Origin: Candidatus Omnitrophota bacterium
GTDB taxonomy: Bacteria; Omnitrophota; Gorgyraeia; Gygaellales; Profunditerraquicolaceae
NCBI GenBank assembly: GCA_028716705.1
Contig: JAQUPI010000003.1
Span: 7,737-71,736, forward strand
Length of the DNA stretch: 64,000 nucleotides
Reading direction: 5' to 3'
The first letter of the stretch is position 1, and every line of letters starts with the position of its first letter. The translations under genes and the position numbers were made by a program. A model generated the notes under the pieces. The model did not search any database. It saw nothing but the letters and a program-made list of their open reading frames with translations, and was not told the origin of the DNA. Of the stretch, positions 2-53,325 are shown piece by piece.

Positions 2-3000
2 GAAAAGGCCCTTGCCGCTGCAAAGCGCATCCAGGATAATTACGGCATCACCAGATGGCTGGCAAAGCGCATCGCCGTTCATCATCCCATTAATCCGGAA
101 GATTTTGCCCAGAACGCCCTGAAGGTAGCCGCGCAGCTTCAGGATAAATACGGCATAGAAAAAGGATGGGCCCTGCATGCGGCGGTGCGTAACCCCACCG
201 ATCCGGATGCCTTCGTCGCAGGCATAATTAAAAAGAGAAAAAATGCGTATGAACGCATATTGGTCGGCCTCGTCCCGCAAGCGCCATCAAAGGTCAGATA
301 TGAGCTAAAAGACGGCTCCATAAGAGAGATCTCCGACGCCAAACATGAATATCGAATATCGTTAAGCAAAGAAGAAACATCCAGAGTGAGCCAGGTGACC
401 GTTGAAATAGAGCAGGCTAAACTGGTCAGGAATGTGATCAGCAGGATTCGCCTGGGAGTATTTAAGGGTTCGCCCTTGACGCGCATAGCCGGCATTTTGA
501 AATTCCTGGAAGTCAAACCCGGTGAAAAGTTCCTGGATCTGGGTTCAGGGGACGGTAGGGTGGTTTTCCTGGCCAATGCCTTATGCGGCGCCAACTCCAC
601 GGGGGTGGAGATAGATGAACGGCTATTGAATAAGGCAGAGCTTGCCCGTGGGCGGTTGATAGAAAAAGGCATCGTAAACCCCGAAAGAATAAAATTTGTC
701 AAAGGCGATTTCCTGCAAGAAGACTGGTCCGCTTATAACCTGTTGTTCTATTACTCCTTCGGAACGTTTAAAACCGATAGTATCGTGGAAAAAGCCATCC
801 GTGAGATAAGGCCGGGAGCCAAGCTGGTTGTCCTGGCGCTGAAAAGGGTCTCCTGGATGAACCACTTCGACGATTTTACCCGGCTTATGGACGCTAACCG
901 GTTTACCTTCCATTCGGAGCCAGGGCTGGGCGTCTGGGTATTTACGCGCAAAGGACCCGCAAATGACTGGTGGCAGGACAGCGGACTTTACGGGCCTTGC
1001 TATCGCATCGCCGGCGCGGAAAAGATCGAGGTCCATTTCTGGCCCAGGCCGTACCAGCTTAAGAGGGATATCATTAAATTACATTCGGCTTATCCGCAGA
1101 TCCGCAGCGTAACCAGGGAGGATCTTGCGCCTTTGGCACAAGCTATGCGTTTGGTCAGGGACGTCTGGCCTGGGAAACACGATGAAATATTGGATTATAC
1201 CAGGAAGATCAATATACGGCCGGAGCCGAAGCTTCCTTTAGCCCTTGGATTCACCGTACCCGGAATTAACGGATTAATGCTGCTCAACTCTTACTTCACG
1301 GATGTGCCTTCATTGACGGAAACCATTATCCATGAAAATCAACATTCCTATTTCATCAGGGAATATTATTCTCAAAAACTGGAAAACAGTTCAGAACATC
1401 TTAACAGGGCATGGGGCAAACAGCTTACGGTCCAGGGCCTTTTAAGCGAAACAGTCGCTTACCTGGAAATGGTGAAGTTCAGGATGCTCTACTGGCGCGG
1501 CATGATCAAAAACGACCCGGATACAGCCTTTAGAAAAACGTATCAGAAACAGACCGGGGACCTGTTGAAAGAGATCGGTTCGGTATGCGACCTGATAGCT
1601 TATAAGCTATTCGCCTGCCCCTCCGTCCTTGGCAAAAATCAGGTCGATCTATTCCTGAGAGCCAGAGAAGAACTTTCAGCTATTGAAAAAGAAGCAGGCG
1701 CGCCATTCGAGGCAACCTCCGGCCTCTTCAACAACCTGACCAAACGGAAGATTGCGCGGTTTTTCAAGGATATCGATTCAGGCAGGATCGGGCTTAAGGC
1801 AGCGGAAGGCTTCAGCGGTTTTGATACAAAGATAGAAGGCAAACAGGTGAAATTCTACGAAATGGTCTTCGCCGGCAAAGCGCCTCCCTGCGCCTTTGCC
1901 AGACAAAAAGACAATCTCCTTGAAATATACTTCTCTTCTGCCGCATTAGAACTCCTTGAAAAAGAATTCAAGCCCGAAGAATTCCCTGGGCTCTCCCAGG
2001 TCATCGCTCTACACGAATACGCTGAAACAGTCAAAGGCCTCTCGCATCAGGAAGCCGTCCTTTGCCAGCGCGTTGCAGGCCTGGAAGCTACAGCCGATAA
2101 ATTAGAGGCGATACAATGCAGGTTCTATACAACAACCATAAGCAAATTTATAAGCCAGGCATTCCCGAAAGGAACGATCCTCGCGCCTTCTTTCGCTAAT
2201 CCCACGGACACCAGAACAGCCGAGGGCAACCGAAATGCCTGCCTGGATATCCATAAGACCGGGGAAGGGTTCATAGTAGATATTCCCGAAGCGGAGGAAG
2301 GATCCAAAGGCAAGATCATTTATCCCTATTACGCAGTGGTCCCCGTAATCATCGCCGCCAAGGATATACCCGCTTCGCTCAAAGAGGCGATCGGCGCCAC
2401 AAAGGCAAAAGAAAAAGAAGTTACAGAAAAGACCGGCGAATATCTTAAGGAAGCCGCGTCTAAAGCAATGCTGCCGGTGATGGCAAAGCAGGCGCGTTCG
2501 CATAAATTGACGGATAAGGGCATGCGCGCCCTTGATGCCGAGTCAGTGATCGCCATTATTAATCCGGTTACGGGCGATCTCCTGGCGCAGGTGACCTTCT
2601 GGGCAAAGGATAAGGAAGAAATTCTCGCCGCAGGAAGGATCGCCGCTAAAGAAAGCATGCTTACAGATCTGCCTGAAGAATGGTACAGGCAGGCGGATAT
2701 CGCCGATTCTGTTTCCGCGTTAGGATTTTTATCCCTGAATGCCATCAGGTTTTTCGAAGAATTGCGCCAAAGTAATAAAGAAGCCAAAGACCTTCTGATA
2801 AGGGTCATCAGCGCCATTCAACCCGGGGAACTACTCAAACTGGATGGCATCGAATATGACCGGACTATGGGCGTCTTCAGGTCGGCAAAAGACAAGCCCG
2901 AAGAACTGTATATGGGCAAGAACCTGGAGTCATTCCTGGCGCAATTGAACACCGTCCAGCAGCTGGCCAGCCTGGTTTACTTTCTGGCTGTTCCTTCATA

Positions 3001-6000
3001 CGATCCTGTAACCCGGCGCGCGAAAGGCCTTACGCGCTACGCTGACCTGGAAGAAGCCGTTATCAGGTTCTATTACCGTTTATACAGGAAACTGGATGAG
3101 TCGGCTATCCGTAACTTCAAGGATATCCGGGTCTTCGAGCCGCTGAGAAAAGAAATCGGCATATTCGCCGGACGCCTTAACCGTGCGGTGCGCCGGAAAA
3201 ACGCCCTGGAATTCAACGCGCAGGACGCCGGATCGATAGTCAGCGGATTGAAAGGGAAAGCGGCGCTCAGCGAGGAGGAGATCTCGGATCTAAGCGCAGG
3301 GCACAGGTTGTATGATATTTTGCAGCTGGCCGAGATGCTCAGCGAAGATAATTTCGTCAGGGCCTTCTATTCCTGTAAAGTGGAGGCGCCGAAGAGAGTT
3401 TTACCCGAAGAAAAGCCATACGAGGCATATGACGGCACCGGCAGGATCGCGCGGCTGGCCATGGCCCTGAGATTGGTGAGCGACCTGAATAATCCGGCGC
3501 TTTCGCCTGATTACAAGAGCCGGTTCCTGGTCCGGAGCCGAAGTATCGCAGGCGCGACGATGGAAGAGAAATTCGCTAATTGCAGGGAGTCCCTTGAAGA
3601 AATGCTTGCCGACAGCGTTATCGCCTCTTCGAAATTGACCGTGAAGACAGCGCAAAAAGATGTCGAGCTTTCGGAGTTAATCGCGGATAGAAGGGTAACC
3701 TTTGTTGCCGGCGCCAGGGCGCTGAAGGCAAAGCTTGATTCTTTAACTGATATGGAAATAGAAAGCGTTTACCCGGTAAAGGTTCTTTTGGACGGCAGGG
3801 AGATCGCCCTGGCTTATTTCCTCGATTGCGACAAGGGTTTCAGGGCACGGGCTAAAGAAGAGCGCGTGAATGTGTACAATATACCCAGGCCGAATATCGT
3901 GATCGACAACGGCGTCGCTTACCATTTCAGCTTAATGATCGATGCTACGCCCGGAGGCGTTGAGGTAGTGGGGTGGAAGGAAGAAGAGGTTAAGGCCCTT
4001 TCCAAAGAAGAGTTAGACAAGAAGAAGATAAAGGAGCTGAGCGGCCCCACTGTTTTTGAAATGGTGGGAACAGAGAAGATCGACGATCCGGAGTATAAGC
4101 TGGAGCCGGTTTCCGAGCTCCGGGTGCTCAGGCAGCTGAGCAGGCAGATCGAAGAGAAGCGCCTTGAACCAGGAGAACGCCTTACCTATATCAAGGCCCA
4201 GATCGGCAAGCTCACCCTTCCTCTGGGAGGCGGGGTACATTTCTTCGGCAGGTTCCTGCACAAGCTTCCGCTCATAAAAGAGAATGGTTTTAACTATATG
4301 ACGCCTACCTCCTGCAGCACCAACGGCGCTTCTTATTTCAGCCTGGCTTTATCCACGATCACCGGCCTTGGCCTTAAGAACCTGTCGCTTCTGGGCCTGA
4401 CTTATCATATGTACACCTCAGGCAGCGACGCCAAGCAGGTCTATGGGCACCTTTCCCCGAAATCCACCGGAGCGGCCAAGGGCGTCACACAACATCTTAA
4501 ATTAGCAGCAGCGCTGTTTACCGCAGTGCGTACTCCTACCGCCTTTAAAGACGGCCAAACGGATGTAGTAGGAGGCTCTATATTCGATTTTATATTGCAG
4601 CTGCCGTATCCGGTAAAGAAACAGACCCTTATCGCATATTTAGAGAGAGTAGGGATGGAATTCCCTGAGATGCTCAAGGTCTTTGAGGGCCGCCCGGATT
4701 ATAAATGGCAAAATACGATCACCGGCCAAAGGACCGGCTCCATCTTTTATGAAGGGCTCTTTTCCCAGGTCAATGCGAATACGTTCCGGGCCTTCGTCGG
4801 TTATGACAATGAGATGAGCTATTCCTTTAAGATGGACGAAATGAAGGAGGCCTATTACGAACTTCTAAAGAGGCAGCGCGACAGGATGGAAAGATACTAT
4901 GCCCTGCCTTTAAACGGCGAAAAGATCGATAACTATATCCGCAAGGAACCCTGCGAGGAAGAAGGCACCGGGGGCAGTTCAGTGGTTTACAGGTGCAGCA
5001 TCGACTCGATCAAAGGAAACAAACTCTTCAACACTATCCGCATGGCGAAAAAAGTCCGTACAGAAGGGGAAAATACCTTTTACCGCAATGTCATCTTAAG
5101 CCTGCTGGATGAGTATTTCCTGAAGAAAGGCAATTATTCAGTTTCACATATACCGGCGCCCCTCGGATGGATCAAGAACGCCTGTTTCTACATCTTCGTG
5201 CAGGGAGAAGAAGGTTTCCCCTGGGATTTGGGGCCCTTCGGCCACGTGCAGATCGAGGAATGGAACAGCTGCATCGGCTCATTTGGCGCAGCGGGGGTTT
5301 CCCTTTCCAGCGATGTCACTACGCCTGACGACGGAAGGGTATCAAAGAACATCATCGTGGAACCTTATAAAATTTCCGAATTGTACGAAACCATGAAGCT
5401 TTCCAAGATCTGGAAGAGGATAGATGTAGACTCCGGAAGCGTGGGTATAAGGGAGGAAGAACTGGAAAGGTATATCAGGGAGAATCGTGATAGTCTGCAA
5501 AATATCCTGGGATGGAAATTTTCTTTATTGGAAACGGTTTTTGAGATATACTTCAAGGGCAAAAACGCGCAGAAAGAAGGGAATTTCACGCAGCTTTTCG
5601 GGAAGTACCAGAAAGAAATATTAAGGGAATACCTGTATCCTTACAGCAAGCAGGGGATAACCGACAAAATGACCGAATCGAGGAATAAAAAGATACGCCC
5701 TGTAATATTGATCATATTGGACGGTTTCGGTTACAACAGGGAGAGCCGGGATAACGCGGTCGTCCTGGCCAAAAAGCCGGTAATCGACAAGTTGATGAAC
5801 GAATGTCCTTCCACCCTTATCAATACTTCAGGTTTGGCCGTTGGGCTGCCGGAAGGCGAAATGGGTAATTCCGAGGTCGGGCATTTGAATATCGGGGCCG
5901 GAAGGGTGATCAGGCAGGATGTTGTGCGCATAAATGACAGCATAAAAGAGGGGGCTTTTTTCTCGAACGCTGCCTTAAAAGAAGCCGTGGTTCATCTCAA

Positions 6001-9000
6001 GAATAATCCCGGAAGCAAGTTGCATCTTATGGGATTAATTTCTAACGCCGTAGTGCACTCGAGCATAGGGCACCTCCACGCCTTGCTGCAATTTGCTAAA
6101 CAGGAAGGCTTAAAGGACGTATATGTGCACGCAATAACCGATGGCAGGGATTCGCCTCCGCAGAGCGGGAAGGTTTGGATCCAGGCGCTTTTGGAAGAAA
6201 TACGCAAGATAGGCGCAGGCAGGATAGCTACCGTGTGCGGCAGGTATTATGCCATGGACAGGGATAACCGCTGGGAAAGGGTGAATCTGGCGTATGATCT
6301 TTATACGCAGGGAACAGGCATAGAAGCTCAGGACGCCATAGCGGCTTTGGAGGGATCTTACCTTAATGAGCCCAGAGGCGATGAATTTGTAAAGCCGGTC
6401 GTCATGGTCAACCCGGAGCAAAAGCCCTTAGCCTTGATCAAAGACGGTGACGTGGTGATCTTCTTTAATTTCCGGGCTGACAGGGCCAGGGAGATAGCCC
6501 GCGCCTTCATGGATAAGGAATTCAAGGGTTTCGAAAGAAAAACCCATCCGAAGATAAAATGGCTTTGTATGACCGAACACGATAAATCATTCTACGATTT
6601 CGCCGGATTGTCGGTAATATTCTCTCCGGAGCCAAGGTCAAATACCCTGGGGGAGGTCATTTCCAAAAACGGATTAAGGCAGCTCCACATTGCGGAAACG
6701 GAAAAATACGCGCACGTGACCTTCTTCTTAAACGGCGGAATAGAAAGGCCTTTCGAGAATGAAGAACGGATATTGATACCTTCCCCGAAGGTCGCTACAT
6801 ACGACTTGAAGCCGGAGATGTCCGCCAGAGAAGTTACAGAAGCGTTAACGAAGAGGATAAGGGAAGGGACGGATGATTTCATTGTGGTCAATTACGCCAA
6901 CCCGGACATGGTCGGGCATACCGGCATCCTGGAGGCGGCGATCAAGGCGGTAGAAGCGGCAGATGCCTGCTTGGGAGAGACTTTAGAAGCAGTCAACCTC
7001 CAAAAGGGAGTAGCGCTGGTGATTGCCGACCACGGCAATGCCGAAGAAATGTCCGGACAGTATAAGACTTCGCATACGTTGAACCCGGTACTCTGCATTT
7101 TGGTTGATCCGCATAAGCATCTGGGGAAAGTTTCCCTGCGCGAAGGAGGAGCTTTATGCGATATCGCCCCGACATTGCTCGAGATCCTGCACATAGAACA
7201 GCCGCGGGAGATGACCGGAAAGTCGCTTTTCGATAAAAAGGGCCACGCCTTTTGCCCCAAAGACGGCTTTATCGCTTCCGCTATAAGCTTGGGGGCCGGC
7301 TTAACCATAGCGCTTGGGCTGACCTTCCTTTTGGGCAGCGTGTCGGCCATAATAATCGCGGGTTTATTTGCCGGTTACGGCATCTGGACTTCAGTAAAGT
7401 TTGCGCTTCTGGGCAGGGCGACTTTCAATATAGCCGCCAATATGAATCCGCATTTACCTGCCCGCACCGTCCTTTCTTACCCTGTTGCCAGATCCGACGG
7501 CACAATAACCTCTGAATTTGAAGCCCTCCGGAAAGAAAACCCCAAAGCCGCAAAAGAAATCCTTACGCACGAAAGCTCCAAGTCGCATTTCTTGGGGATG
7601 CTGAAGCTGCTGCCCGGCAAATTCATACTTTTATCTATCGGGATCGCGGCTTTAATCCTAATTTTAGGCCAGAAAATAGAGTGGGGATCCGGGACGGTTG
7701 GCTTGGCTATGGTATTCGGAGGGATGTTCGGCGGCGGTTTCCCGAAAGCAAAAATCCGCCTGTTCTTCAAGATAGCCATAGGAAAAGCTGAGGGCGATAA
7801 AGAATTTGCCGCGCAGATCCTGGAAGAAATAGCGAATAAAGGCATGGCCGTGGGTTTCGCCGCGTCAAAAGATGAGCGTATTTTAGCTTTTGAATTATGG
7901 AAACGGTTCCTGGAGATCCAAACCCTTAAGGATTACGCGAAGGACATATCAGAAGAAGAAGCCGAAACAAGGATTCTGGAGATCATCCGCAAGAGATACG
8001 CCGAAGAATCGCAGGTCATACTGGATAATGAGGCGCTGGCAAAGCTATTGGTCGGCTTAATGAGCCAAAACGAGGAGTTAAGCTTAGAGATAGACAGGAT
8101 ATTAACGAACGAATTGAATCTTGGTTTGGAGCTGCGGGAGATGATCAGGGCGGCGACCTCCGCTTCTGATCCTGAGTTGAGGGGATCCGCCCAAAAAGTA
8201 TGGAACGAATTCATAAGAGACGTCGTAAATTTCATAGACAGGGAGTTTAAGAAAGGCGCTGACTGGGGATACCCCATATTAGCGTATTTCGGCACTCCCG
8301 ACAACGCGGGCTTGAAAGCATTATTAAAGAAGATGTTGGAGGCGGACGATGATTTCTTTTACGACATTTACTTGTTTCTATCGTCAATAAGGCATTTGAA
8401 GGTATTGCACGGGGAATTATTGAAGGCCGGAGATTCCCAGGATGCGGAGTTATTGGAATATACGCAAGGCGTTTTCGAGCGTTTTAGCGTAATGAACGCC
8501 TCGGTAGTGGAATTATCTTTGTTCAAAGACGAATACGATGCCGCGGTCCATTCCTACATTAACTTCACGAATTTTTATTCCTTGGAAAAATTAAGGGCAG
8601 GGCTGGAGAGGGGCGCTTCCAGCGCATTAAATATATACAATGAAATTCAACCGTTATTGAGGGACGCGGATGAAAATGTAAGCGCAGAAGCCAAAGAACT
8701 GTTCGTTAAGCTGTTCCCCAAGAATGGGCGCACGCATAACCTGCGCCCCGTATTGCAGCTTGCGGCAGGAATAGCGACTTTGTTTGCGCCTGGAGCGGGA
8801 GCCGGGTTCTTAAGGGTTGCCCGGGAAACTTACAACGCTAATTTGAAGTACATCCGTGAAATAAACGGCAATAAAGGCCCTCCTGCCCTTAAGCAAAAGA
8901 TTTCAGCGTGGTTGCGGCCTGTTGCCTGCGGTATTTCCGCGGCTTACATAAAATGGTTTATTTCCGATGAAGCCAAAGACAGGCTATCTTCCGGGACGAT

Positions 9001-21000: not shown

Positions 21001-24000
21001 TCCAAGGTTCGGAGATTATCTGCCGGAAGAAGAGATATACTCGGTTGAATTCATACCGGGAGCGGATCTGGCAGGAATGTTGCGGCAAAAAGACATCCTG
21101 GAGCAGAAGAAGCGGCATTTAAAGGAGCAGGCGATAGTCCTTGCTCTGCAATTAGCCAAATCTCTGGGAGAGGAAGACCATGCGCTGGAGTTCCTGATAG
21201 AGATGAGGAATCCGGCTAACGTCATGTTCCGCGATGCCGGAGGAAAATGCGAGCAGCCGGTTTGCGTCGATGTCGGATATTTTACGACCAGGGAGCCGCG
21301 CGAAATAATGCTTACCCTGGGAAATTACATAGACGGCATCTATTTTGGGAATAAGGAACCGCAAGAGTTTTTATTTAACGCGGTTTTAAAAGCCCTGGGT
21401 GACGAAGAAGGCTGCGCTTTCCTTAAACAGGCGTTTGACAGCAAGCTTAATTATCACATAAAGGAAGAATTAGACGCGTATTTGAATAAGAAGACCGGAG
21501 TGAGTCTTCAGAAAGAAAAGGTCACCGCTATCTTTAAGGCCATGGCGAGGGGTAGGGCCGCTCCTGCCAACGCTGCCTTCAAGCAGCTCTGCAGGGACTT
21601 CGGTTTTGACCACCGCGACGCGAATGCCGGGCTAAAAGCGTTGATCATCGGGGTAAAGAGAGGTTTTATCGCGGAAAAACTGGATATAAGGCATCTTTCG
21701 GGAAAGATAAGCAAGATAACGGCGATAACCGGGATGCCAATAGAGATGGACATAAATAATTTAGAGAATGACATAATTGACTTGATAGATGCCGGTTATA
21801 CGGAAGAAAAAATAACCATGGAACTACTTATAGATAACGCTTCCTTGGAAGATTACATAAAGCGGATCAACGATAAATTAGACATATCGGCCAGACAGGT
21901 TCCTGAGGCCGAGGTCATAAATTGGGGTAATGAAAAAGAAGATGACGAAGTTCCTCTCTCCCAGGATGAAAAAAAGATATTAAGGGCAAGAGGCAATTCT
22001 TTGAAAGAGATGATGCCTGAGTTAAATATGGGCGGAGCCCAGATCAGCAATCTCATTTCCAGTATTTGCATTAAATTACAGGCGAACAGTTTCTCGGAGG
22101 CAAGAGAGAAATTCTTCTCCTCAGTAAAAGCGTATGTTATAAGCAAGGGGTGCCACTCGCTCATAGCCGAAGAGGTAGTAAGAGACGCGGATCCCCTGAA
22201 AACATCCCAAGTCCTTATGAACGAAAAACAAAAACTGACCGAGCAGGGTTATACGCTTATTTTAGCTTTATTCCTGGCGATAAGAGAAAGAAATTCAAAT
22301 AAGGTTGTGACGCAGGGATTAAAAGAAGCCATAAAAGAATCCTTTGCTACCGGGAATCCCAAGTGCGGCGATTTCCTTAATGAACTCTGCGATATTGCCG
22401 GCAAAGAGCGCATCGTCAGCGAAATAAAAAATATATTATTAACGGACATGGAAATACTGGAAAGGCTCTGCTCGGAAGAAACCCTGTCCAGATTAAATGC
22501 GTTAATTAAAGGTATCGCTCCGCAGATTGTCCTCAGGACAGCAAACCAGGTACGCATTTTAAAAGAAGTCGTGGCTTCTTCCAAAGCTAAGCAGGTATTG
22601 ACTCAGAAAGATATAGCCGGGAAGATCGGTGTTTCCACGGCTACCGTCAGCCGGGACATAAAGATCCTTCAGGAATCCGGATTTATCGATGTCCGCAAGA
22701 TCATCATTGAGAAGAGGGTTTATCTCTTCGGCCAGGCCCCCGAGTTCATCCTTAATGATGCGGAAGGGGCGATCATGAAAGAGTTGGAAAGGGCGAATTT
22801 ACCTTTATCGGCCCGTGAGCTGGCGAAAAACACCGGCTTACCCAAGAACAACATCCGCAGGAATACCAAAAGCCTCAAGAAAAAGGCACCGGTCAAAGAG
22901 GTTCTGATCAATAAGAGCGTCAAATTTTACCTGGGAGATAAACTTCCTAAATTTATCCTTACGCCTATCGAAAAGCGGATCCTGGAAATACTCTGGAGAA
23001 AAGGCCCTTCGACGCAAAAAGAAATAGCCGGGGATGGGATATCAAGCGGCATGGTCAGCGTTTATGCTAAAGAATTAAAGAGTTGGGATTTGATCAAGGC
23101 GCAGGGTGAAGGCAGAAGCAACGTTAAGCTTAGCTTGACTCCGGAAGGAGCGAAATTTATAGCGCCTGAAATAAAGTTCGGAGTGGCGCAAGGTAATATA
23201 GGGGATAAGAAAGTTTATTATTTTGCGGACGGAATTCAGAATGAAGATATGCAAAACGTATGTTTCTTCCAGGGCAACATGATAAAGATATCCGCTGCCG
23301 CTGACAAAGGTAACAAGCTGCCCTTATCAAAAGAATCATTGTCTTTAAGAATCGCGTCTGTAATGGATAAGTTATATGGCTTTACGAGCCTGAAAGAATT
23401 ATCGGGTATCTTAGGCATACCCGATTCTACGCTATCTCCTTACATGAAGCGCTGTTTCAACAGGATAAACAGCAGGCGCAGGAAAAAAGAAGAGCCCGTG
23501 TACCGGGTCTACAACGATAATACGGTGCAGGCGATGAGAAGCGTGATCGCGGTGCTCAAGAAATGGGGAAGGATAACCGTGGAAGAACTGGCTCTGCAAT
23601 TAAGCCAAGGAAATAGATGCGTAGAGAAGAAACAAGTCATTTCCATCGCCGCGAGGATCGATTTTGCCCTGGTGAACTGGTGCATGGTCAAAAACAATGA
23701 AGAGACGATAGGGATCCAGGGGCTTGAGCCGGTATACAACCGCAATAATACGCAAGAAATACTGGCAGGGTTAGGCAAAAAATTCAGAAAAATATCCATG
23801 AAACAGATAGCGGACGCTTTAAGAGGCATGCCTGAATCTAATGTCAGGCGTTTGATAGAGGCGATGCAAAAGGAAGGCACTCTTCCTTTTGAGGAGATCA
23901 TCCCTTACGAATCGGTGCGCAAAGACATAGTATTTAAGGCGATGGAGGAATTGTCCGCGGAGCGGGCCTCCGGATCATCCGCCAAGCAAATAACTGAAAG

Positions 24001-27000
24001 GGCGATAGCCATAGGTTCGGCATTAGGGGTGCCCATATCAAAAGATATCTCGCTAAGGAAGATACGCGCGATAAAAGAGGAAGGTGTGTTGCCGGCCAAG
24101 ATCATCTCCCATCCCAGGACGCAACAACCGCTCCGCAAGGCCAAGACGCCGAAGGTAAAGGCGCGTAAAAGCACTAAGAAAGCGATAGACCTCCGCTCAG
24201 CCGGCGTTTCAGCCCGGGAAGTACCGCTGGTTAAGCCGGCTGATCAGCCCGTACAGGAGCGTGACGCCGCTTGGTATGCGAGCAAGGATTTTGAGGTCGG
24301 GAAAGAAAGAAGGAACGGCTCAGCGCAAAACGGAAATAGAAATACTCTGCCGGAAAAGAATGTGACGATATTTATAAAACAAGTAAATAAAAAGGTGGAA
24401 TTTTCCATAAAAGAAGCGCTTATCTTGATCGCCAAAGGGTATTCGGCTAAAGAGATCCGCGAAGAGATCGGCAACGGCTTGCTTGAAAATCATATCACGT
24501 CATTCAAAATAAGCATCTTTGTGAAATTAAAAGATACGGGCCTGAGGATTATCGCGGAAGATACTTTGGAGTCATTAAATATGGCCAGGACTATATGTTC
24601 GGGACCAGTAAGAGAAGAACTCATAAAACGCGGATATCCATTGCCCGAAAAGCTCGCGGATAAACCGGCCGTATCAATAACCAGCCAGCCCAGGCAGGCA
24701 GGATTTTACGTTAACGGAGTGTTAAGGGCCCAATTCACCGATGCGGTTGATCCGGAAGATTGCTCTGCCAGGCGCATGCTAAGCGGGAATGGAACCTATA
24801 TCTTTGATGCGGGCTGCTTCTGGAGCGCGAGGATAGAGTATCTAAGGAAGATAGGGGCGATGCTTCCGCAGAATAATCAAAGGAAGCGGTGCTTGTACAT
24901 AGCTTCTGCCGCGGACTATTCTACGGCGCAGATAGTATCTGACGGCGCGAAAGAGACTATTTTTGTGGAAAAACTTCCCTTTGAAGGCGTGGCCGGGTTT
25001 CCCGAAGAGGAATTAGAATATTTCAAAAATTCGTACCATATGCAAGGTTTTGACAGCAACTTCCATCACGTATGCAGCCTCGGAAAAGGGATAGGTATAA
25101 AACAGTACCTGCTCTGGGAGCTTGAAGCGATGGGGGTTAAGACGCAAGCCGTAAGCGTTGAATTTGACACAGCCTTAAACGCGCACAGGATGAAATTTAC
25201 TGTCCCGGGCGCATCGCAAGAAAGAAGCATCCTCTATTTTAATACAGAGGCGGAGGCCATAAGCAGGTACCCGCCGTTAGTTGACCTTATCCGCGAAGGG
25301 TTGGATTCTTTTATTATAAAAGCCGCGGTAGATGTTTGTCTCAGCGATGAAACCATAGGTCTGATAGTTACCTCTATGAACCCTGACGGGATGATGTTCT
25401 TAGACGCGAATTTTGCCTTTTTCAGCGGATCCCTGGAGTGGTTAAACGAGGAACAAATGCGGCAGATCAGGGCCTTAGAGAGGGGCCATGGTTTTGCTTT
25501 CGGGTACAAAGAGATAATCCTGGCCAGGCCCAGGAAGCTTTGGGGAATAGGGCCCAGGAAGGCGGGATTTTATATTAATGGGAAACCTGCCGCGCAATTC
25601 ACAGATGCGGTTTCAGAGGATGACGCAGGTTCGGGGCAGCATGGAGCGCAAGGTTCTGTAGGCCCGTCTGCGCACAAAGGGTTAAGGGCGATATGCTTAT
25701 CATTGATCCTTATCTTGTTATCAGCCCGCGCGGGCGCAGTTAATGCGATGATCGACCTGGCGATCCCCATGAAATCCGCCATAGCGAATACTGTTTCCAT
25801 CGAAAGCCTGTCAGTAGATAACGCGACGGTCGGCGAACGCTTCGCCCATAAAGTCGTTCCATGGGATAGGTTTAATGTGTTGGACAGGCCTGTCTCGCTT
25901 GAAGAAAAGGCCCTTTTGAGAAAGTTTTCGCAACCATCTGCCGCCTACGATAATAGCTTCACGCAGCTAGTAGATAAAATATTTGAGAAAGAAGGGTATA
26001 CAGACAACCGTTTAAAGGAGATCGGCAAGGACGACCCGAAAAAACTGGTTCAGCTTATTGCGGAAATTGTCTACAGGAATGTCCAGTACGATCATACAGC
26101 GTTAAAGGCATCGCAAAAATACAATAAGATTTTTACCGCCAATCTTGGCAATAATAATTTAACAGCTCTGCTTGAACAGGGGTTGACCGCGGAAGAAAAA
26201 ACCTTATTAAACAGAAATCTGACAGAAGTCATTAAAGAAGGCGGTTTATGCGATGATATATCCGGAGTATTTTCAGCCGTCGTCGATTATATGCAAAAGA
26301 AGAACGTATTGACTCAAAATTTATATGCCAATAATTTTACCGGCATAAAAATTGATTCCACGAACCCGATGGCTTATCCTTATACAAAAATAGGCTGGCA
26401 TGAATGGAATAGGATATTTACGCTGGACGAATCCGGAAACCTTATATCGACGCATATCGATATAACAATATATAGCCCTTCTTTGACATGGCTAGATTCG
26501 GTTTTAACATTCAAAAAATCCGGATTAAACGCCGTTGATATAAACCACCGCATTAATATGGGTGTATTGTCCGATAAAGGTTTCAAAACAGAGAGGAATC
26601 TGCATTTAGATAATATCCGCCGATATTTTGCGTTCATAAACTCTACCGTTTCCTACGATCCTAAGATACTTTTGCCGATGCATGTACGAAGAAAAGGCAA
26701 GGTTTCTTCAGTTCCCGGCAAAGGCGAACCGGAAGAAGAACCTTTATTCGATAAATTTAAATGTTACAAAATAGAAGATGACGGCAGCCTTACTGTAAGT
26801 TCTGACTACGGATCTTATCAGGACAACATAAAAACAGGGTTGTCCAAATATTCAGAGAAAGTATTTTGCGTTATGGGGATTAACCGGGTTGTCCTCGCGG
26901 AAGTTTGGCCCGGCCTGAATATCAGCTCGCGCCGCTACTGCGATTGCGCAGGCATAGTGATCAAAGACGGGACATGGATGATCGTATTCCACGTATTATC

Positions 27001-30000
27001 CAGCCTTCTCAGAAAGGCCTGGCCGAATATCCTAAAGATCTATAAAGATCGCGCATCCAAAAACGCGGAAGCAGTCATATTTGGTATCGAGCAGGACGTC
27101 CGCTGGATGAAGAAGAATACCCCCCCTGGCGTAAAAATCATTAAAGAAAAGATTAATGCCTATCCTTCTGAGGCGTACGACCTGTACACGGATGCCGATG
27201 AAGGGGTATTGGCAAGAAGCATTAAAGGCCCTTCCGGGATAGAACTGGAAATATATAGAGACGAATTCAGGTTCACTAACATCGCTGAAAGGGATCCTTA
27301 TTCCGAAGACAGAAGCGTCATGGCGGAGGACCTTAAGGAAAATGGCATAAATGACGAAAGAGTATTATCTGCGATCAGAAATATCCCGCGCCATGAATTT
27401 GTCCCTGAAGAAGAGATGAAAGAATGCGCCTACCTTTACGAGAACAGGGCTTTGCCCATAGGCGAAGGCCAGACTATCTCTTCCGCCAATACGGTTGCCA
27501 TGATGACCCAGGCCCTGGGATTAAAAGAAGGCGACAGGGTCCTTGAGGTCGGCACAGGCAGCGGATACCAGGCAGCGGTCCTCGCAGAAATGGTGGGCAA
27601 AACCGGCAGGGTTTACACTATAGAAATAGTAGAGGCATTGCAAAACAGGGCAAGGGATCTGCTGTCCAAGCTTGATTATGACAATATTGAATATAAAGCT
27701 GCCGATGGGTATGAGGGATGGGCCGAAAAAGGGCCGTTTGACGCCATTATCATTACAGCTGCTTGCAGCGAGTATCCATTGCCTTTGATCGGGCAACTAA
27801 GAGAAGGCGCGAATTTAATCTTCCCGCTTGATTCGGGGATCGAAAAGCTTTTGGTCATAAAGAAGGCAGGCAAAGATTTAGAGGTAAGCACTTTAGCAGA
27901 GCGCATTAAATTCGTGCCTTTCGTAAGAGGCGCGGTAAAACTATATCCGCGGCCAGTCCAAACATATAAGAGAACACTCTTTGACGAAAAAGAGTATCTT
28001 TCAGCGAAAAAAGAAGCCGCGCAGAAATTAGCCAAATTAGACCCCCAGGAAGCAATATCTACATTCATCCAAGTTATAGAGAATTCTATTTCTCCTTTGT
28101 CAGAAGTACTGCTGGAACTGGCAGGAAATATCGGCACGCCGGAAGCGGTCGCATTCATTATAAAAGCGTTAAACAACAGGACCATGTCTGTCAGGCAGCA
28201 GGCTATTTCACTTCTGGAGAAGTTTGAAGATGAAAGGATCTATGGGGCATTATTGCCTGTTATTTGTACAGCCGGTGAATCCCTCGTACAGGAGGCGATC
28301 CGCGTGCTCTATTCCAAGAAAGAAAATCCCCTGTACAGAAAAGAAATATTAAAAGCGGTTATCAGCCAGGATCCCGCAACGCGCTTTGGCGCGGCGACTA
28401 TGCTTGCCACGATCATCGATGATGAAACAATGCGGATGTTGGATTTACTCGCCAAATCTGATCCGCAGGAGGAAGTAAGAAAACACGCGAAGTTCGTATT
28501 GGTTTGCGTACAGAGCAGGCTTGAGGAAGACAAATTAACCGCAGGGATAAAATTAAAAGAGGACAAGGTATTATCTCTTATAGATTCGTTCGCTTTTGAA
28601 AAGAAAGCGCCGCTTAAAGCGATCGATATCGGTTCGGGAGCGGGGGAATTCAGGCGTAGAATAAACATCCTTTGGCAGGGAAGGGAGATAGACATTGAAT
28701 GCGTGGATTCAAATAGCGAAGCGGCAAAAATAGGGTTTATCCATTATGGCATGCCGATATTGATAAGGAATGCCGAAGATCATATCTTTGAAGAAAAAAG
28801 TTTTGATATCGCCTTTTTAAACTATCCTAATCCGGGCTACATGAAAGTGTTAAAATTGCTCCCAGAGGCCGAAAGGATACTGCGGGATGGAGGTTTATTC
28901 TTTTTTGCCAGCAGCCGGGACGATTACCAGCCTGAAGAGATAAAGGATATATTGTCAAGGTCGCATTTTGAAATAATAGCTCAATACAACGGAAAAGAAA
29001 ACATACCGGCGGGCTATCCGCTAAGCCAATGCGCGGAGCAGGCAGTTGCATCCGGCAATATCGGTCCGGAGATGGTCTATCTTATAATTGCCCGCAAAAA
29101 TCGTACAGAGCTGTTATTAGGTTCGGGCGCTGTCAAAGATCATCTGAAGGATCCGGGGATTTTATCCGCCAGGCAGGCAGGGTTTTACATTAACGGGCAG
29201 TTAAGAGCGCAATTCACGGATTCGATTTCTGAAGAAGACGCTGCCGTTGGAGATCGCCGGTTCCCGCAAGATCGATTGAGCCCGGGTCCCCAGGTTCCAG
29301 ACGTTGAGATTATCAGGCTCTTATCCGGCAGCGATACGAAAGAGATAGATAGGGCGCTTGAAATCATGGAAAGCATTCACGACCCGGAAAGGGTATCGTC
29401 AATTGTAGAAAAGGTATTTGCCAATCGCCGGCTGGAGCCGGTATTTATGGAGGAGGATAACACATTGGCAATAATCGGGGAAAACAGGAGCCATAAGGGC
29501 ACTTATGAGATCGCGGAATTACAGGGCGAAGATCCATACGTTCATTTCTATAATGCCTGGATATCCGAAGAATTAAGAGGCAAGCGTATCTTGCCGTTAT
29601 TACTGCGTTGGGCAGCCGCTCATGGTTCCTTCCGTAAATTTTCCGGATGGCGGACAGAGGTGGATAACGCCAATTATATGTCAGCCAGGGCTTGGTGGCG
29701 CAGCGGATTTACTGACATCGAACTATTTGAAAGGGAAAGCAAAGAGCCGGTCAGTTCGATAGAGGAGCTTAAGCCTTCAGAAAAACGCTATATTGTAAAA
29801 GCCAGATTCCCGTTATGGACAAAACAGGCCGGCATACCGAATGTGCCTTTTGATAAAGGCGCGGTACGCTTGACATGCAACTTGGGTAACATGCTTCCGG
29901 GCAGTGTAAGCACGGCTTATTTGGCTTTTCCCGATCCCGGTGACCTGCGAGCGCAGGGAAAAGGATTCGCGGAATGCGCTTACAGGATCTTAAGAGAGGG

Positions 30001-32797
30001 CGGAGAGTTTTTGATATATTACGAGGTGCCGATGTCTTCAGCCGCCGTATTCTTATATGAAGAGAACATAGAGGGATTTGTAATATCCCTGAAAAAAGCG
30101 GGCTTTATTGTAGAAGGGCCGGAACATATCCTGTCTTCTGTGAATTATGCCGTAACCATAAGAGCTAAGAAGCCGCGGAAGGAAGACTCAATTTCAGCAA
30201 AAGCGCTGCGGGAGAAAGCCGTCCCGATCCTTTATGATCTGGGGTATTCAAAAGGATCCCTGGATCCGCTGCTAAAGGAACTTGAGACCCTGTTCAAGGA
30301 GATCGATGCCAGAATGGGGCTGGCCAGGCTTCAAAATGAATTAAGCCAGGCCCTGCAAGCGAATAATGCCGCGCGTCTTATAGCCCCTCTTAACGGATTG
30401 AATTCGCTGTTTGAGGAAAACAACTATAAGAACGTTTACCGTCCAAGGCCGATAATAAATCTATTGATCAACGGCTTAAACGCGGAGGATATCTTTGAGC
30501 GCATAATGCAGACCGAGATCCCGACCATGCTCAAGCTTAAAGCCAATGAAACGCTCATTTCCTGCACTGCCATTTCCCAGCTGGGTTACACCGTTTTGAG
30601 GTCATTGGGCGTGGATGCCAAGGGAGCGATCTCCCCAAGGCACGCTTTCCTCGGAATGGAGCTTAGCGGCGGCCGGGTCCTGTTCATTGATTTCTACAGG
30701 AATATATTCCGTGCGGTCAATATCGCCAGGTATTACAGGAAAGAAGGGGTGTATTTTGTCCTTAAGGAAAAATACAGGCTCAGCCGGAAGGAGTTAGGGG
30801 GGATTACGGAAAGAGTTGCCGCTGTTAAGGGCGGAGAAAGAATAACTGTGGTAGAGAGTTTGAGAGGCAACAAACTTCTGCATTGGAAGTTCTTTTACAT
30901 TAAAATGATCAGTTCCGGGGGAGTTTCCCGCCTTATCCATAACAACCTGGGCCTGGCTTACGGGACTCTAGGCATCTATAATGAAGCGATCTTGGCCTGC
31001 AAAAAAGCCATAAGATTGGACCCGAATTACGCGGATGCCTACAACAACCTGGGGATCATTTACGCCCACCTGGGGCAATACGATAAGGCTATCACGGAAT
31101 TAAGGAAGGCAAAGAAATTGAATCCCAACGATAACGGCATCATTTCCAACTTGGATAAGCTTTATGGTATGCAGGGCGGGATAGGCAAAACCAGTTACCT
31201 GGCTGAAGGCGAACCGCTGGGCATAGACACCCCGGCCGTATCTTTAAATAAGATGTTATTAGGCTGGGCAGGAAGATACAGCGAAGATGAGATTTTGATG
31301 CTGATAAAAAAAGCCAAGGCAGAAAAACGCATAAAGAACCCGGGGCTTAAGCTTGGATTACGTTTATGGATGGCGCAAATACGAACCAACACTTTATTAG
31401 AAACCCTGGCCAAACAAGGGCGGATCGCGGGGCCTCCTTTTATCAAGGGTTTCCGGTTGATCATGAATGAGAATAACGCGCTGACATTCGGCGCTTACAT
31501 CAAACAAGGCATCCTTTATATCGAGCAACCCCTCCTTCAAGACCGTTCCCTCGAAGAGATCATCCTGCATGAAAAAATCGAGATTGTTGCCAAAGACCAT
31601 GCGATAGCGCAAGGCCTGACAAGAGAAGTTCTCACCACTTCGCTGCGCGTACATACATCTAATATCAGGCATATCATTGGCACGGTGCTTAAGCACCGTT
31701 ATTTCCCGCTGTCGATTTTTATTTCCATGATCGCGTTTACCGCCCTAATTTTTACCTACAGGGACACGATTATAAATTTGGGCGTTTTTGATTACCGGCT
31801 GGCGGCATTCCTTACTTCGGCAGTGACTAATGCCACCGTTTTTATTCCGGACACAGGCCTTGTTATAATCCTTTCCCTGGCCGCGGCGTATAATCCTGTT
31901 ATAGTGGGGATTATGACCGGTTTGGGAGCGATCACAGCATTGCTTATGACCTATTTTGGAGGCCGCATTATCCGTTCTTTAGTAAAAGGAGACCGCATAG
32001 ACCGTATCGAGCAAAGGGTAAATCACGGGATAGAGAAACGGGGATGGCTCTTTATCCTATTCGCTTACGGCATCCCCATACCTTCTCCCCTTCCTGAGAT
32101 CACGGGCATAGTAGCCGGAGCCACGAAGTTTTCCATTTCCAGATTCCTTATGTTTATCGTATGCGCTACGGCGGGAAATGTGATAAAAAGCGTTTTTTAC
32201 GCCTGTATCGGCGCATGGCTGTTGAATTTATACGGGCCTGCAGTATTGAACTTTTTCAAGGAGAATGTGCTTATCTTCGCGCCTTTAGCGGGAATAGCCG
32301 TGATCTTCATCGCTTTTGTAGCGATCTTAAAGCTGGTCCCGGAAATAAAAAGGATCCCCGCGTTTGCGTCTATAGACAGGTTACTGACAATTGAGGGCAT
32401 AAAGTTGTTGTTTGAGAAATCCGGGCAAGGCATAAGGATTTCGAAGATAAGCGTAAAGAAAATCAGCATAAAGCCGGTCAGGATAATCATAAAGGGAATA
32501 AGGATCAGGGTCAGGCCGTTGAAAATAAAGGTCAGGGCGCTCAGGATAAAGATCAAAAAGTTAAGAATAAAAGTAAAGAGGCTAAAGATAAGTATAAAGA
32601 AGCTGATTATAAAGAAGGGGGGGATTTCGGAGAACCGGGAAGAAAAAGCCTGCCCGGAAAATAATACAAAAAGAACGCAGGAGAAAACTAATAACCAGGA
32701 CCTTGCCATCGAAAATCTGAGCAATGGTATGGAATCTATGCAGGGAGGTAAGACGGCGCAGATAGAGAATGCCACGGTTATTTCCAGCCGGATATAA
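2..32797 (+). CDS. Giant multidomain protein, 5'-partial. The reading frame is open from window position 2. The first start-like codon in the window is GTG at 185. More than 10,930 aa lie in the window.
   Basis: Continuous stop-free frame for 32.7 kb in ~50% GC DNA. Many recognisable protein motifs occur in this single frame (listed as sub-features). The frame is still open at the window start, so the true start lies upstream. Confidence 0.9.
   Translation, partial: [10931 protein letters not shown]
440..960 (+). other. Domain in giant ORF: class I SAM-dependent methyltransferase fold
   Basis: Motif I '[12 protein letters not shown]' (glycine-rich SAM loop) followed by an acidic residue ('VEIDE') and a post-II region, in the usual Rossmann order. 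Confidence 0.6.
5692..7240 (+). other. gpmI: Domain in giant ORF: 2,3-bisphosphoglycerate-independent phosphoglycerate mutase (iPGM/GpmI-like), apparently full length
   Basis: '[10 protein letters not shown]', '[22 protein letters not shown]', '[10 protein letters not shown]', 'TSHTLNPV' and the C-terminal '[23 protein letters not shown]' match the iPGM family signatures in correct order over ~515 aa. Confidence 0.85.
7255..7790 (+). other. Cluster of ~4 predicted transmembrane helices inside the giant ORF, immediately after the iPGM domain
   Basis: Hydrophobic stretches '[40 protein letters not shown]', '[16 protein letters not shown]' and '[17 protein letters not shown]'. Confidence 0.5.
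10175..10198 (+). other. CxxxCxxC motif (radical-SAM-like [4Fe-4S] cluster motif) in the giant ORF
   Basis: In-frame 'C-S-V-Q-C-D-Y-C'. It is a single motif and no further radical-SAM landmarks were recognised. Confidence 0.3.
17300..17935 (+). other. Domain in giant ORF: RelA/SpoT-type HD ((p)ppGpp hydrolase-like) domain
   Basis: '[14 protein letters not shown]...[10 protein letters not shown]' and downstream '[13 protein letters not shown]' mirror the SpoT/RelA HD-domain blocks ('GEPYI.HPL.VA', 'LLHDVVEDT', 'IKLADRLHNMRTL'). Confidence 0.6.
20000..20470 (+). other. Domain in giant ORF: CHAT / caspase-like (clan CD) peptidase-like segment
   Basis: '[12 protein letters not shown]' (His block) and '[14 protein letters not shown]' (Cys block) resemble the His/Cys dyad motifs of CHAT domains. 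Confidence 0.35.
22580..23150 (+). other. Three helix-turn-helix / winged-helix DNA-binding-like motifs inside the giant ORF
   Basis: '[30 protein letters not shown]' (DeoR-like HTH), '[24 protein letters not shown]', and '[39 protein letters not shown]' (MarR/TrmB-like wHTH). Confidence 0.45.
26238..26475 (+). other. Domain in giant ORF: transglutaminase-like cysteine-protease core (C...H...D)
   Basis: '[17 protein letters not shown]...[23 protein letters not shown]' shows the Cys / His-x-Trp / Asp spacing of the transglutaminase-like superfamily. Confidence 0.3.
27340..27935 (+). other. pcm: Domain in giant ORF: protein-L-isoaspartate O-methyltransferase (PIMT/Pcm)
   Basis: '[15 protein letters not shown]', '[19 protein letters not shown]', '[19 protein letters not shown]' and 'GRVYTIEI' match PIMT blocks in order. 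Confidence 0.8.
28045..28515 (+). other. HEAT-like helical repeats in the giant ORF
   Basis: Repeated '[25 protein letters not shown] / [10 protein letters not shown] / [13 protein letters not shown] / EEVRKHA' helical-pair pattern typical of PBS-lyase/HEAT repeats. Confidence 0.45.
28600..28990 (+). other. Second class I SAM methyltransferase-like domain in the giant ORF
   Basis: '[11 protein letters not shown]', an acidic residue at 'IECVDS', and 'FDIAFLNYP...[10 protein letters not shown]' are in the usual motif I / II / post-III order. Confidence 0.45.
29461..29735 (+). other. GNAT-like acetyltransferase segment in the giant ORF
   Basis: '[41 protein letters not shown]' resembles the GNAT motif A region (R/Q-x-x-G-x-G/A-like with the following helix). 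Confidence 0.3.
30925..31160 (+). other. TPR repeats (about 2.5) in the giant ORF
   Basis: '[63 protein letters not shown]' fits the canonical 34-aa TPR consensus. Confidence 0.7.
31690..32365 (+). other. C-terminal multi-pass TM block with DedA/SNARE-associated-like signature in the giant ORF
   Basis: Several hydrophobic helices plus '[48 protein letters not shown]', which resembles the DedA/TVP38 family core. Confidence 0.4.
32400..32625 (+). repeat. Periodic K/I/R-rich low-complexity tail near the C-terminus of the giant ORF (in-frame ~9-nt periodic DNA repeat)
   Basis: '[60 protein letters not shown]'. The DNA shows repeated AGGATAAAG-like units. Confidence 0.8.
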
Positions 32798-49970: not shown

Positions 49971-49973
49971 ACG

Positions 49974-50852: not shown

Positions 50853-50857
50853 AAGAG

Positions 50858-51706: not shown

Positions 51707-51711
51707 AAAAA

Positions 51712-51743
51712 TTGTTTAATGTGGAAGGTATATTTGTTATAAT
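51712..51743 (+). promoter_or_regulatory. Promoter with extended -10 (TGTTATAAT at 51735-51743) upstream of the MFS gene; an imperfect palindrome lies downstream (about 51764-51793)
   Basis: Consensus TATAAT with a TGn extension. 'CACCCAAACC...GGTTTGGTGTG' is a near-inverted repeat lying between the promoter and the RBS AAGGAG. Confidence 0.45.
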
Positions 51744-53319: not shown

Positions 53320-53325
53320 GGCTGG

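Follow-up and report, generated by a model that had tools for sequence, protein, structure and literature searches.

Open reading frames (ORFs) of more than 20 kb are present in most Velamenicoccia genomes, and are poorly conserved with few annotated domains (Seymour et al. 2023). The Archaeovorins, as defined by West-Roberts et al. 2023 (bioRxiv 10.1101/2023.11.21.568195), are a set of proteins of more than 30,000 amino acids (aa), with the 39,678-aa protein of Ca. Velamenicoccus archaeovorus LiM as the type. In the parts of that preprint available to us, the domains given for them are HEAT, glycosyltransferases, TPR, methyltransferases, NUDIX, radical SAM and PPDK, together with glycoside hydrolases and peptidases, and a divergent SecA DEAD-like domain in most members; TIM, PGI, FBPase, PGM/PMM and aldolase domains are rarer, and a 5BXY-like methyltransferase is noted. 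The same parts describe Archaeovorin genes as followed by pilZ and then by solute-binding proteins (SBPs), ABC permeases and glycoside hydrolases (section 11), and suggest cleavage by C39/S8 domains. The available parts of Nielsen & Lui 2026 (bioRxiv 10.64898/2026.06.07.730766) catalogue 916 Omnitrophota proteins of at least 10 kAA, out of 5,761 clustered, and describe a 'multi-enzyme metabolic cluster' class; 80% of the sequence clusters are singletons, and transmembrane (TM) segments take up about 2% of residues. We report here on a gene of this kind, which runs from position 2 to position 32797 of a stretch of 64,000 nt (the window) on contig JAQUPI010000003.1 of a Candidatus Omnitrophota bacterium. 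All positions are those of the window, and residues are numbered from its first in-frame codon.

To judge from its sequence, the ORF is very probably the 3' 32.8 kb of one genuine giant gene of the Archaeovorin or 'multi-enzyme metabolic cluster' kind from Candidatus Omnitrophota.

2..32797, + strand: giant ORF, 10,931 sense codons plus TAA, with the 5' end outside the window

There are no stops in the 10,931 codons of frame 2..32794, which is closed by a TAA at 32795-32797, and as the frame is open up to the first base of the window the N-terminus of the giant lies outside it. About 584 stops would be expected by chance (p(stop) = 0.0534 from window composition, or about 1 per 19 codons), and log10 P(no stop) for this frame is -260.7, that is P ~1e-261; the remaining two + frames of the same stretch have 795 and 561 stops. 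With a codon-usage model trained on the 14 genes downstream of the giant, each of the 22 bins of 1.5 kb gives a positive log-likelihood for the giant frame, higher than for any other frame. No tandem DNA repeats were found by TRF, and chunked self-BLAST of the giant gave no long internal protein repeats, only short recurrent motifs, so that its length is not due to repeat expansion. A Shine-Dalgarno (SD) sequence precedes only 2 of the 195 in-frame ATGs, and with SD so nearly absent the idea of several genes in place of one fails on gene structure. Internal translation starts were considered and rejected on the same count, as neither the Met heading the phosphoglycerate mutase module nor that heading the isoaspartate methyltransferase module (both described below) has an SD ahead of it. 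The preliminary description of this DNA had proposed one stop-free giant gene with its N-terminus off the window and of a length impossible by chance, and both points are borne out, with a coding signal in every bin; the end it gave, 32797, is correct only when the stop codon is counted, as the last sense codon ends at 32794.

The locus is also carried by other assemblies, retrieved through exact look-ups of neighbouring proteins, and all those so retrieved are 99.8-100% identical to the window across the overlaps. NCBI JAQTUM010000013.1 (54,766 bp) begins inside the giant gene and carries its final 4,853 codons, with 3 mismatches and no indels against window 23393-44916 (21.5 kb). In ENA k141_3041745 no stop occurs in the 4,506 codons that follow the contig start, and further copies are in Logan contigs of SRR22315506, SRR22315507 and SRR22315508, in Logan SRR8542065 and in JGI Ga0265297_10001711. 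Residues 2687-6106 of the giant are also matched, at 100% identity, by a database fragment of 3,424 aa.

In the case of the JGI contig, a second metagenome scan gave 98.98% identity between its first 21 kb and window 7241-28302. The 209 mismatches fall mainly at codon position 3 (126, against 48 at position 1 and 35 at position 2), dN/dS is 0.19 overall (Nei-Gojobori) and 0.17 over the Pfam-dark stretch at window 7241-15000, and the first 6,884 codons of the contig contain no stop. The sole true indel lies at window ~27892 (aa ~9297, L087:4500), within the isoaspartate methyltransferase module, where the JGI contig has lost one base of a TTT run and reads TT; this deletion makes the gene caller split the giant into 6,884 + 1,627 aa. 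A frameshift in an independent assembly had been named in the preliminary description as grounds for doubting a single gene, and taken literally the JGI contig provides one. However the ENA contig differs from it by 1 mismatch in 21.5 kb and is thus of the same strain, yet it reads TTT there, in agreement with the window and the NCBI metagenome-assembled genome. Because this near-identical contig of the same strain is without the deletion, we read the latter as an assembly error or a minority variant and not as fixed.

It is thus highly improbable that the ORF is an artefact or a decaying locus, in which mis-assembly or sequencing error has run separate genes together, or an array of pseudogenes is open by accident. 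Although the JGI frameshift does split the call, and every sequence derives from metagenome assemblies, the sequence at the frameshift site is the same, to the base, in three other assemblies, one of which is of the JGI contig's strain, and in a strain diverged by about 1% the frame persists across 209 substitutions, at a dN/dS of 0.19 and with no second indel. The chance of such openness (P ~1e-261), the lack of any hidden gene structure as indicated by the two SD-preceded ATGs in 195, and the presence in relatives of syntenic giants, which reach 32,476 aa and in one case lie on a contig of 1.87 Mb, also argue against it.

The mismatches to the JGI strain are not evenly spread, as 95 of the 209 crowd into window 17000-18000 (aa ~5670-6000, in the region of an HD domain). 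There dS is 0.31, against 0.007-0.07 elsewhere, with dN/dS at 0.19, as might be expected of a segment imported by recombination or of a hypervariable patch.

With regard to the published giants, ours resembles the Archaeovorins in its Omnitrophota host, an ORF of tens of kb and scattered TM helices, and in having HEAT and TPR repeats, methyltransferases (one of them 5BXY-like), a radical-SAM-like motif and embedded domains of glycolytic or sugar enzymes. The locus is also Archaeovorin-like, with pilZ next and then an SBP, ABC permeases and glycoside hydrolase genes, which are GH2-like here. It differs in that it is visible for 10,931 aa whereas the Archaeovorin set comprises ORFs of more than 90 kb (>30,000 aa), and in that no glycosyltransferase, glycoside hydrolase, NUDIX or C39 domain was found in the visible part, nor a SecA DEAD-like domain in the visible 10,931 aa at E <= 0.01-0.1.

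The resemblance to the 'multi-enzyme metabolic cluster' class lies in a length of at least 10 kAA, many Pfam families tiling the chain with none dominant in copies, the content of methyltransferase, HD, HEAT/TPR and radical-SAM elements, TM segments at about 2% of residues, and a unique sequence. The modules stressed in the available parts of Nielsen & Lui 2026 are starch synthase, GT1, PGM/PMM, ROK and hexokinase, whereas the clear enzymes of the window giant are a cofactor-independent phosphoglycerate mutase (iPGM) and a protein-L-isoaspartate O-methyltransferase (PCMT); the flanks described there are secretion or pilus genes and glycoside hydrolases, to which the window adds a run of glycolytic fusions and a conserved Tiki-fold gene. 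The iPGM, PCMT and DedA domains are not in the portions of the Archaeovorin and Nielsen & Lui domain lists available to us. The window giant is thus one more example of an already described kind of Omnitrophota giant protein. The preliminary description was right that the ORF mixes metabolic, regulatory and membrane modules in the manner of the giant genes known from Omnitrophota, and overrated its novelty, as giants with embedded sugar or glycolytic domains, PilZ and sugar-uptake neighbours had already been published (10.1101/2023.11.21.568195; 10.64898/2026.06.07.730766).

Domains were sought by Pfam scans over all 10,931 aa, by NCBIfam and by comparison with PDB, and scores are quoted against curated cut-offs; TM segments were defined by a Kyte-Doolittle (KD) hydropathy scan only. 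The enzyme and membrane modules are as follows.

485..835, + strand: S-adenosylmethionine (SAM)-dependent class-I methyltransferase, aa 162-278 (Pfam DOT1 33.9 bits, cut-off 23)
4289..4876, + strand: degenerate module like the GAPDH catalytic domain, aa ~1430-1625 (TIGR01534 E 3.4e-4)
5696..7231, + strand: complete iPGM, aa 1899-2410 (Pfam Metalloenzyme, PF01676, E 1.7e-82; iPGM_N, PF06415, E 2e-78)
7271..7741, + strand: membrane block of ~4 TM helices as two hairpins, aa 2424-2580 (KD peaks 2.3)
9104..9166, + strand: further TM-like helix, aa 3035-3055 (KD 2.02)
25679..25759, + strand: lone hydrophobic segment resembling a signal anchor, aa 8560-8586 (KD 1.92)
27302..27934, + strand: PCMT, aa 9101-9311 (Pfam PCMT E 4.7e-55)
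28625..28906, + strand: second class-I methyltransferase, aa 9542-9635 (Methyltransf_11 46.8 bits, cut-off 21.2)
31700..32326, + strand: DedA/VTT membrane domain of ~5-6 TM segments, aa 10567-10775 (VTT_dom 35.8 bits, cut-off 33.9)
32417..32626, + strand: cationic tail, aa 10806-10875, in which hydrophobic residues alternate with K/R (net charge +27 over 70 residues)

The iPGM module matches PDB 1EJJ, the stand-alone GpmI of Geobacillus stearothermophilus, at E 4e-160 across residues 4-509, and its DG, GNSEVGH, NPDMVGH, DHGN and SHT motifs are aligned and conserved. By the residue numbering of 1EJJ these include the metal and phosphoserine motifs. The alignment covers the whole enzyme with its catalytic residues kept, and against TIGR01307 (cut-off 330.65) the halves of the module reach 133.6 and 518.9 bits. 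In contrast to stand-alone GpmI it is embedded in a chain of more than 10,931 aa, with TM helices 14 residues on and a Met without SD; this native-like Met sits 8 residues upstream of the alignment start, and PCMT likewise has a native-like Met. Among the matches listed in a contig scan with the iPGM module, ordinary iPGMs of ~510 aa are up to 55% identical to it and none is a giant-embedded relative. An ApgM-type phosphoglycerate mutase gene of 426 aa (Metalloenzyme + PhosphMutase; L001:15687-16967) lies on the same contig, ~1.7 kb past the 3' end of the window, and the iPGM of the giant is probably not the organism's sole phosphoglycerate mutase.

The degenerate GAPDH-like module is ~270 aa upstream of the iPGM. 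It is collinear by BLASTP with the GAPDH of a neighbouring gene, the motifs being SCSTN, TYHMYT, STGAAKG, AVRTP and YDNE..S, and apart from this stretch BLASTP and phmmer gave no significant paralogy between the giant and the downstream glycolytic genes. Having more than one glycolytic module recalls the bifunctional PGK/TIM (NF010569), in which consecutive glycolytic steps are in one chain. However the NF010569 fusions are soluble, of two enzymes and ~650 aa, whereas in the window giant single glycolytic modules are scattered along a mostly unrelated, membrane-anchored chain.

PCMT scores 216.5 bits against NF001453, above the equivalog cut-off of 188, and 187 bits against Pfam PF01135 (cut-off 20.3), and it matches PDB 3LBF at E 1e-41. 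The class-I methyltransferase at aa 162-278 also matches the PDB 5BXY RNA methyltransferase (E 7e-6) and an NCBIfam protein-lysine methyltransferase (E 2e-6).

Hydropathy defines ~12-14 TM segments in four clusters in the visible giant, with a weaker candidate at aa 2917-2935 (KD 1.38). The membrane block after iPGM starts 14 residues past the end of that module, and its outer flanks are net positive. That the iPGM reaches a TM helix so soon after its end suggests tethering. At the other end the VTT_dom match spans profile positions 3-121 of 123, with KD peaks up to 2.84.

Downstream of the giant lie, as the preliminary description had it, glycolytic fusion genes; these and the other genes of the flank are as follows.

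32849..33178, + strand: PilZ-domain gene, 109 aa (PF07238 on the called gene in four assemblies)
33393..34916, + strand: conserved Omnitrophota gene of ~500 aa (507 aa), with a core like ChaN/TraB/EreA (Tiki superfamily) and a long helical insert
34951..42408 (34906 in the longer call), + strand: PFK / GatZ-like / GAPDH / PGK fusion gene, 2,485-2,500 aa (Pfam, NCBIfam)
42454..48141, + strand: PPDK / PEP-synthase-like gene, 1,895 aa, with ~800 extra residues (Pfam, NCBIfam)
48681..63103, + strand: sugar uptake and processing genes (SBP, two ABC permeases (BPD_transp_1), MFS, GH2-like, TPR proteins, ROK, coiled-coil, LacI)

The 507-aa protein has a confident AF2 model, in which the predicted ChaN/TraB/EreA-like core bears a large helical insert, and the invariant residues of its family include QDAHCNY..QK and GGFHT motifs. 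At E <= 0.001 it has 346 homologues. Of these 120 are listed, with identities of 44-66% but for one identical copy, and all the named entries among them carry Omnitrophota or Omnitrophica labels. Five of the window proteins are themselves named Candidatus Omnitrophica/Omnitrophota bacterium in NCBI.

We used the 507-aa family as anchor to find relatives, and examined four loci. In all four a very large gene ends a few hundred bases upstream of the ~500-aa gene.

L090/L091: upstream gene of at least 17,569 aa (cut by the contig end); downstream, an FBPase_3 fusion
L092 (1.87-Mb contig): upstream gene of 32,476 aa; downstream, GatZ-like, enolase and TIM-GAPDH-PGK
L095: upstream gene of 6,624 aa; downstream, FBPase_3 and PPDK
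L096: upstream gene of 30,339 aa; downstream, aldolase-PFK-GAPDH and PPDK

The C-terminal ~3,200 aa of these giants cannot be aligned with the window giant or with one another, the exceptions being equivalents in L096 of two modules of the window giant, B and E (see below), and one match between L095 and L096. The giant ends carry different domains: TIM and GNAT in L092 (L092:1-9754), HEAT and UPF0489 in L091 (L091:1-9441), CheR, Cation_efflux and DUF1152 in L096 (L096:1-9805), and in L095 (L095:1-9744) a flavoprotein matching FAD_binding_2 end to end with Succ_DH_flav_C, and further PrmA, a protein kinase and MarC. Both L095 and L096 have a small membrane-protein domain within the last ~700 residues, as the window giant has DedA.

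The internal parts are also rare in the databases. In an exhaustive HMMER search aa 5200-6399 were matched by just 67 of 1.84 billion representative proteins, module by module and with varying module order, mostly in proteins of 1,000-7,500 aa. A k-mer-seeded search of 5.8 billion proteins gave no match for aa 2401-3900 or aa 6101-9100, which makes these dark regions near-orphans at that sensitivity. The module-wise matches and the unalignable syntenic giants together point to a giant that evolves fast, as a mosaic built from shuffled modules and from whole genes captured at a positionally conserved locus.

As to what the giant does, our best explanation joins its identity with a scaffold mechanism, and for the whole we would give a probability of about 0.55. 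The mechanism itself, that of a membrane-tethered and mainly cytoplasm-facing scaffold for which we infer topology, scaffold role and any catalysis, is put forward only tentatively. The giant would be a mosaic in which several modules are whole ordinary genes fused in frame, namely those for iPGM, PCMT, DedA, methyltransferases and helix-turn-helix (HTH) regulators. A few helical hairpins and the C-terminal DedA block would hold it at the cytoplasmic membrane, with the bulk on the cytoplasmic face in reach of 3-phosphoglycerate, SAM and DNA. Such a membrane-proximal scaffold could place extra copies of glycolytic enzymes (iPGM and the degenerate GAPDH in the window giant, TIM in a relative) beside the sugar-import and glycolytic fusion proteins encoded downstream. 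Regulatory modules would be carried as well (kinase-like, HD and HTH, with PilZ adjacent), and PCMT would be a protein-repair module.

We favour this reading because every confident module requires cytoplasmic substrates, because the hairpins after iPGM are positively flanked on both sides, and because the embedded enzymes duplicate activities encoded nearby: there is a GAPDH in the neighbouring gene and an ApgM-type phosphoglycerate mutase downstream, and TIM is in both the L092 giant and its neighbour. Several points weigh against it. The topology may differ, as the lone segment at aa 8560-8586, and an odd TM count should only aa 3035-3055 be a true TM helix, would leave PCMT, HEAT and the methyltransferases, or else all of the middle, outside the cell. 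The ApgM-type gene may make the iPGM redundant, surface-acting modules could hide in the ~80% of the chain that is dark or in the N-terminal part beyond the window, and published work on V. archaeovorus and the Archaeovorins prefers an extracellular, predation-related role.

That published role, an apparatus for predation or attachment at the cell surface, in which an exported coat binds prey and degrades walls while sugar enzymes pre-process sugars outside, seems to us unlikely for this giant. It is the interpretation given for V. archaeovorus and the Archaeovorins, and the GH2-like and sugar-uptake genes downstream, the signal-anchor-like segment at aa 8560-8586 and the HEAT and TPR repeats, which could bind ligands, are in keeping with it; the N-terminal part beyond the window could also carry secretion signals or a SecA-like domain. 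However Pfam scans of all 10,931 aa gave no adhesin, dockerin, secretion domain or CAZyme, and there is likewise no lectin, peptidoglycan-hydrolase or SecA domain in them, while the modules that are present need cytoplasmic SAM (three methyltransferases and PCMT), 3-phosphoglycerate (iPGM) and DNA (HTHs), and the positive outer flanks of the two hairpins after iPGM imply that both sides are cytoplasmic. The giant might instead be a polyprotein precursor, cut either from within, by the papain-like or HExxH modules, or by the Tiki/TraB-fold neighbour, with the long ORF as a device for co-expression. The completeness of the embedded iPGM and PCMT with their native-like N-terminal Met, and the invariant Cys-His-Asp of module A (see below), would fit with this, as would other HE-containing segments spotted by eye. 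The TraB/Tiki superfamily, whose fold the ~500-aa neighbour shares, includes proteases, although the Tiki/ChaN/EreA fold also has haem-binding and esterase members so that protease function is not implied. Cleavage of Archaeovorins by C39/S8 domains was suggested in the available parts of West-Roberts et al. 2023. We nevertheless think it doubtful that the giant is cut up in this way, as no protease family scores above curated threshold in it, no junction motif recurs between modules (the repeated R[QK]AGFY[IV]NG..AQFTD resembles a paralogous tail), and the run of iPGM into a TM helix within 14 residues suggests that it stays tethered.

The scaffold reading has a further form, which we regard as quite unlikely as it stands: the giant ORF would be an accretion site that swallows ordinary genes in frame, lineage by lineage, and so builds a cytoplasmic glycolytic scaffold with PCMT for self-repair and a Tiki/TraB-fold partner. 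The genes taken up would be iPGM, PCMT and DedA here, and TIM, a fumarate-reductase-like flavoprotein, MarC, a CDF transporter and CheR in relatives. If true, the ~500-aa Tiki/TraB-fold neighbour would service or process the giant, and this would depart from the published extracellular predation coat. The giant genes of Omnitrophota are already recognised, and a single extra example changes little. The locus is however a clean case with regard to where the giants sit and what they do, as all its confident modules are of cytoplasmic type and its iPGM is complete and, by position, tethered to a TM hairpin; in relatives the same position holds unalignable giants with other housekeeping enzymes, always beside the ~500-aa gene and glycolytic fusions. 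It offers testable handles in the activity of the iPGM, self-repair by PCMT, the topology and processing of the giant, and what the conserved neighbour does.

About 80% of the giant chain has no family assignment, and the remaining modules are regulatory, repetitive or weakly matched.

1133..1489, + strand: HExxH-containing segment, aa 378-496, with HENQH at 443-447 (motif read)
10157..10258, + strand: CxxxCxxC motif CSVQCDYC, aa 3393-3400 (Radical_SAM E 0.022, below cut-off)
11807..12694, + strand: dark module E, recurrent, aa 3936-4231 (matches P0157, P0178 and the L096 giant, E 1e-6 to 3e-43)
15704..16261, + strand: papain-fold-like module A, aa 5235-5420, with Cys5301-His5342-Asp5357 (alignment A3)
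16349..17176, + strand: PI3K/PIKK-like kinase-core module B, aa 5450-5725 (alignment A2)
17252..18151, + strand: HD domain of RelA/SpoT type, aa ~5751-6050 (spoT_relA E 1.5e-8)
21764..23560, + strand: HTH and winged-HTH cluster, aa 7255-7853 (HTH_24 E 5e-17 in 3 stretches; HTH_IclR, MarR_2, GerE, MerR_1)
27947..28507, + strand: HEAT repeats, aa 9316-9502 (HEAT_2 E 4e-11; AlphaRep designed HEAT-like proteins in PDB)
30935..31141, + strand: TPR repeats, aa 10312-10380 (TPR_1 E 8e-18)

Most of the modules named in the preliminary description are recovered, namely the iPGM, the PCMT (there PIMT), both methyltransferases, the four TM helices (~4 by hydropathy), the DedA-like block (above its gathering score), the cationic periodic tail, the HExxH and HTH/wHTH motifs and the HEAT and TPR repeats. 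The degenerate GAPDH domain and the PI3K-like kinase module were not in its list and are newly found. Its CHAT-like peptidase and GNAT-like segment are not supported: profile hidden Markov model (HMM) searches at E <= 10 gave no CHAT or caspase family for aa 6601-6933 and no family for aa 9801-10033, and a single-sequence AF2 model of aa 6561-6960 is unusable (pLDDT 34).

For three others of its proposals the family matches are weak. The CxxxCxxC motif is present, but the radical-SAM signal does not go beyond it, the match (15.4 bits, cut-off 29.5) being confined to the first 35 of 166 profile positions. For the RelA/SpoT-type HD domain the HD dyad is there, in LFHDTRED, and the spoT_relA match and a PDB match to RelA (E 2.9e-4) are consistent with it, but the scores are far below curated cut-offs (spoT_relA 33.5 bits against 499, over the N-terminal 60 positions; HD_4 19.5 bits against 27.2, E 8.7e-4); ~30 homologous modules exist, in comparison with which it has an insert of ~50 aa, seen as split matches. 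In the case of the transglutaminase-like peptidase fold, module A, the Cys, His and Asp are invariant across 14 homologous sequences, but the family links are weak (SseI in PDB by profile, E 0.033; Pfam Tox-PLDMTX, E 0.016, and 0.002 in P0176) and there is no match to Transglut_core. For the HExxH segment the sole family hint is the TIGR04267 aKG-HExxH hydroxylase (E 0.0026, below cut-off), which is not a protease.

In module B the alignment has an invariant G, DRxxxN and N and a near-invariant D, and its profile matches the catalytic loops of mTOR, TOR2 and ATM at E 0.04-0.1; Pfam PI3_PI4_kinase gives E 0.07 on it and 0.005 in P0140. It is homologous to part of the L096 giant (E 2e-15). The module is single-copy in the window giant, and P0141 and P0143 (~4,800-5,100 aa) have 8-11 tandem copies. 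Module E stands beside different modules in P0157, P0178 and the L096 giant.

Two short motifs recur in the giant. R[QK]AGFY[IV]NGxxxAQFTD is found three times (window 24692-24751, 25556-25636 and 29171-29251; aa 8231, 8519 and 9724), its copies coming after methyltransferase-like modules, and KFGVA[EQ]GNIxxKKVxxxADG twice (window 15599-15661 and 23174-23236; aa 5200 and 7725). Neither is present in the segments of the relatives' giants examined. We considered both (as R[QK]AGFY[IV]NG..AQFTD and KFGVA.GNI..KKV) as cleavage sites, and this is unsupported, as neither occurs in the relatives and both have the look of a tail or head of paralogous modules.

Among the downstream genes, the ATG at 34951 of the fusion gene has an SD ahead of it and is also the start given by other gene callers, and the PGK part of this 2,485-aa form matches NF010569. 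The oversized fusion genes contain long stretches without annotation. No TIM or enolase was detected within the window, nor any tRNA or Rfam match. One GH2-like gene is above and one below the Pfam cut-off.

A metagenome scan with the N-terminal 600 aa of the visible giant gave no match. The visible N-terminal end, at window 2-240, opens with two repeats of ~38 aa (..YGI....A...AV..P..P..F), which probably continue upstream of the window.

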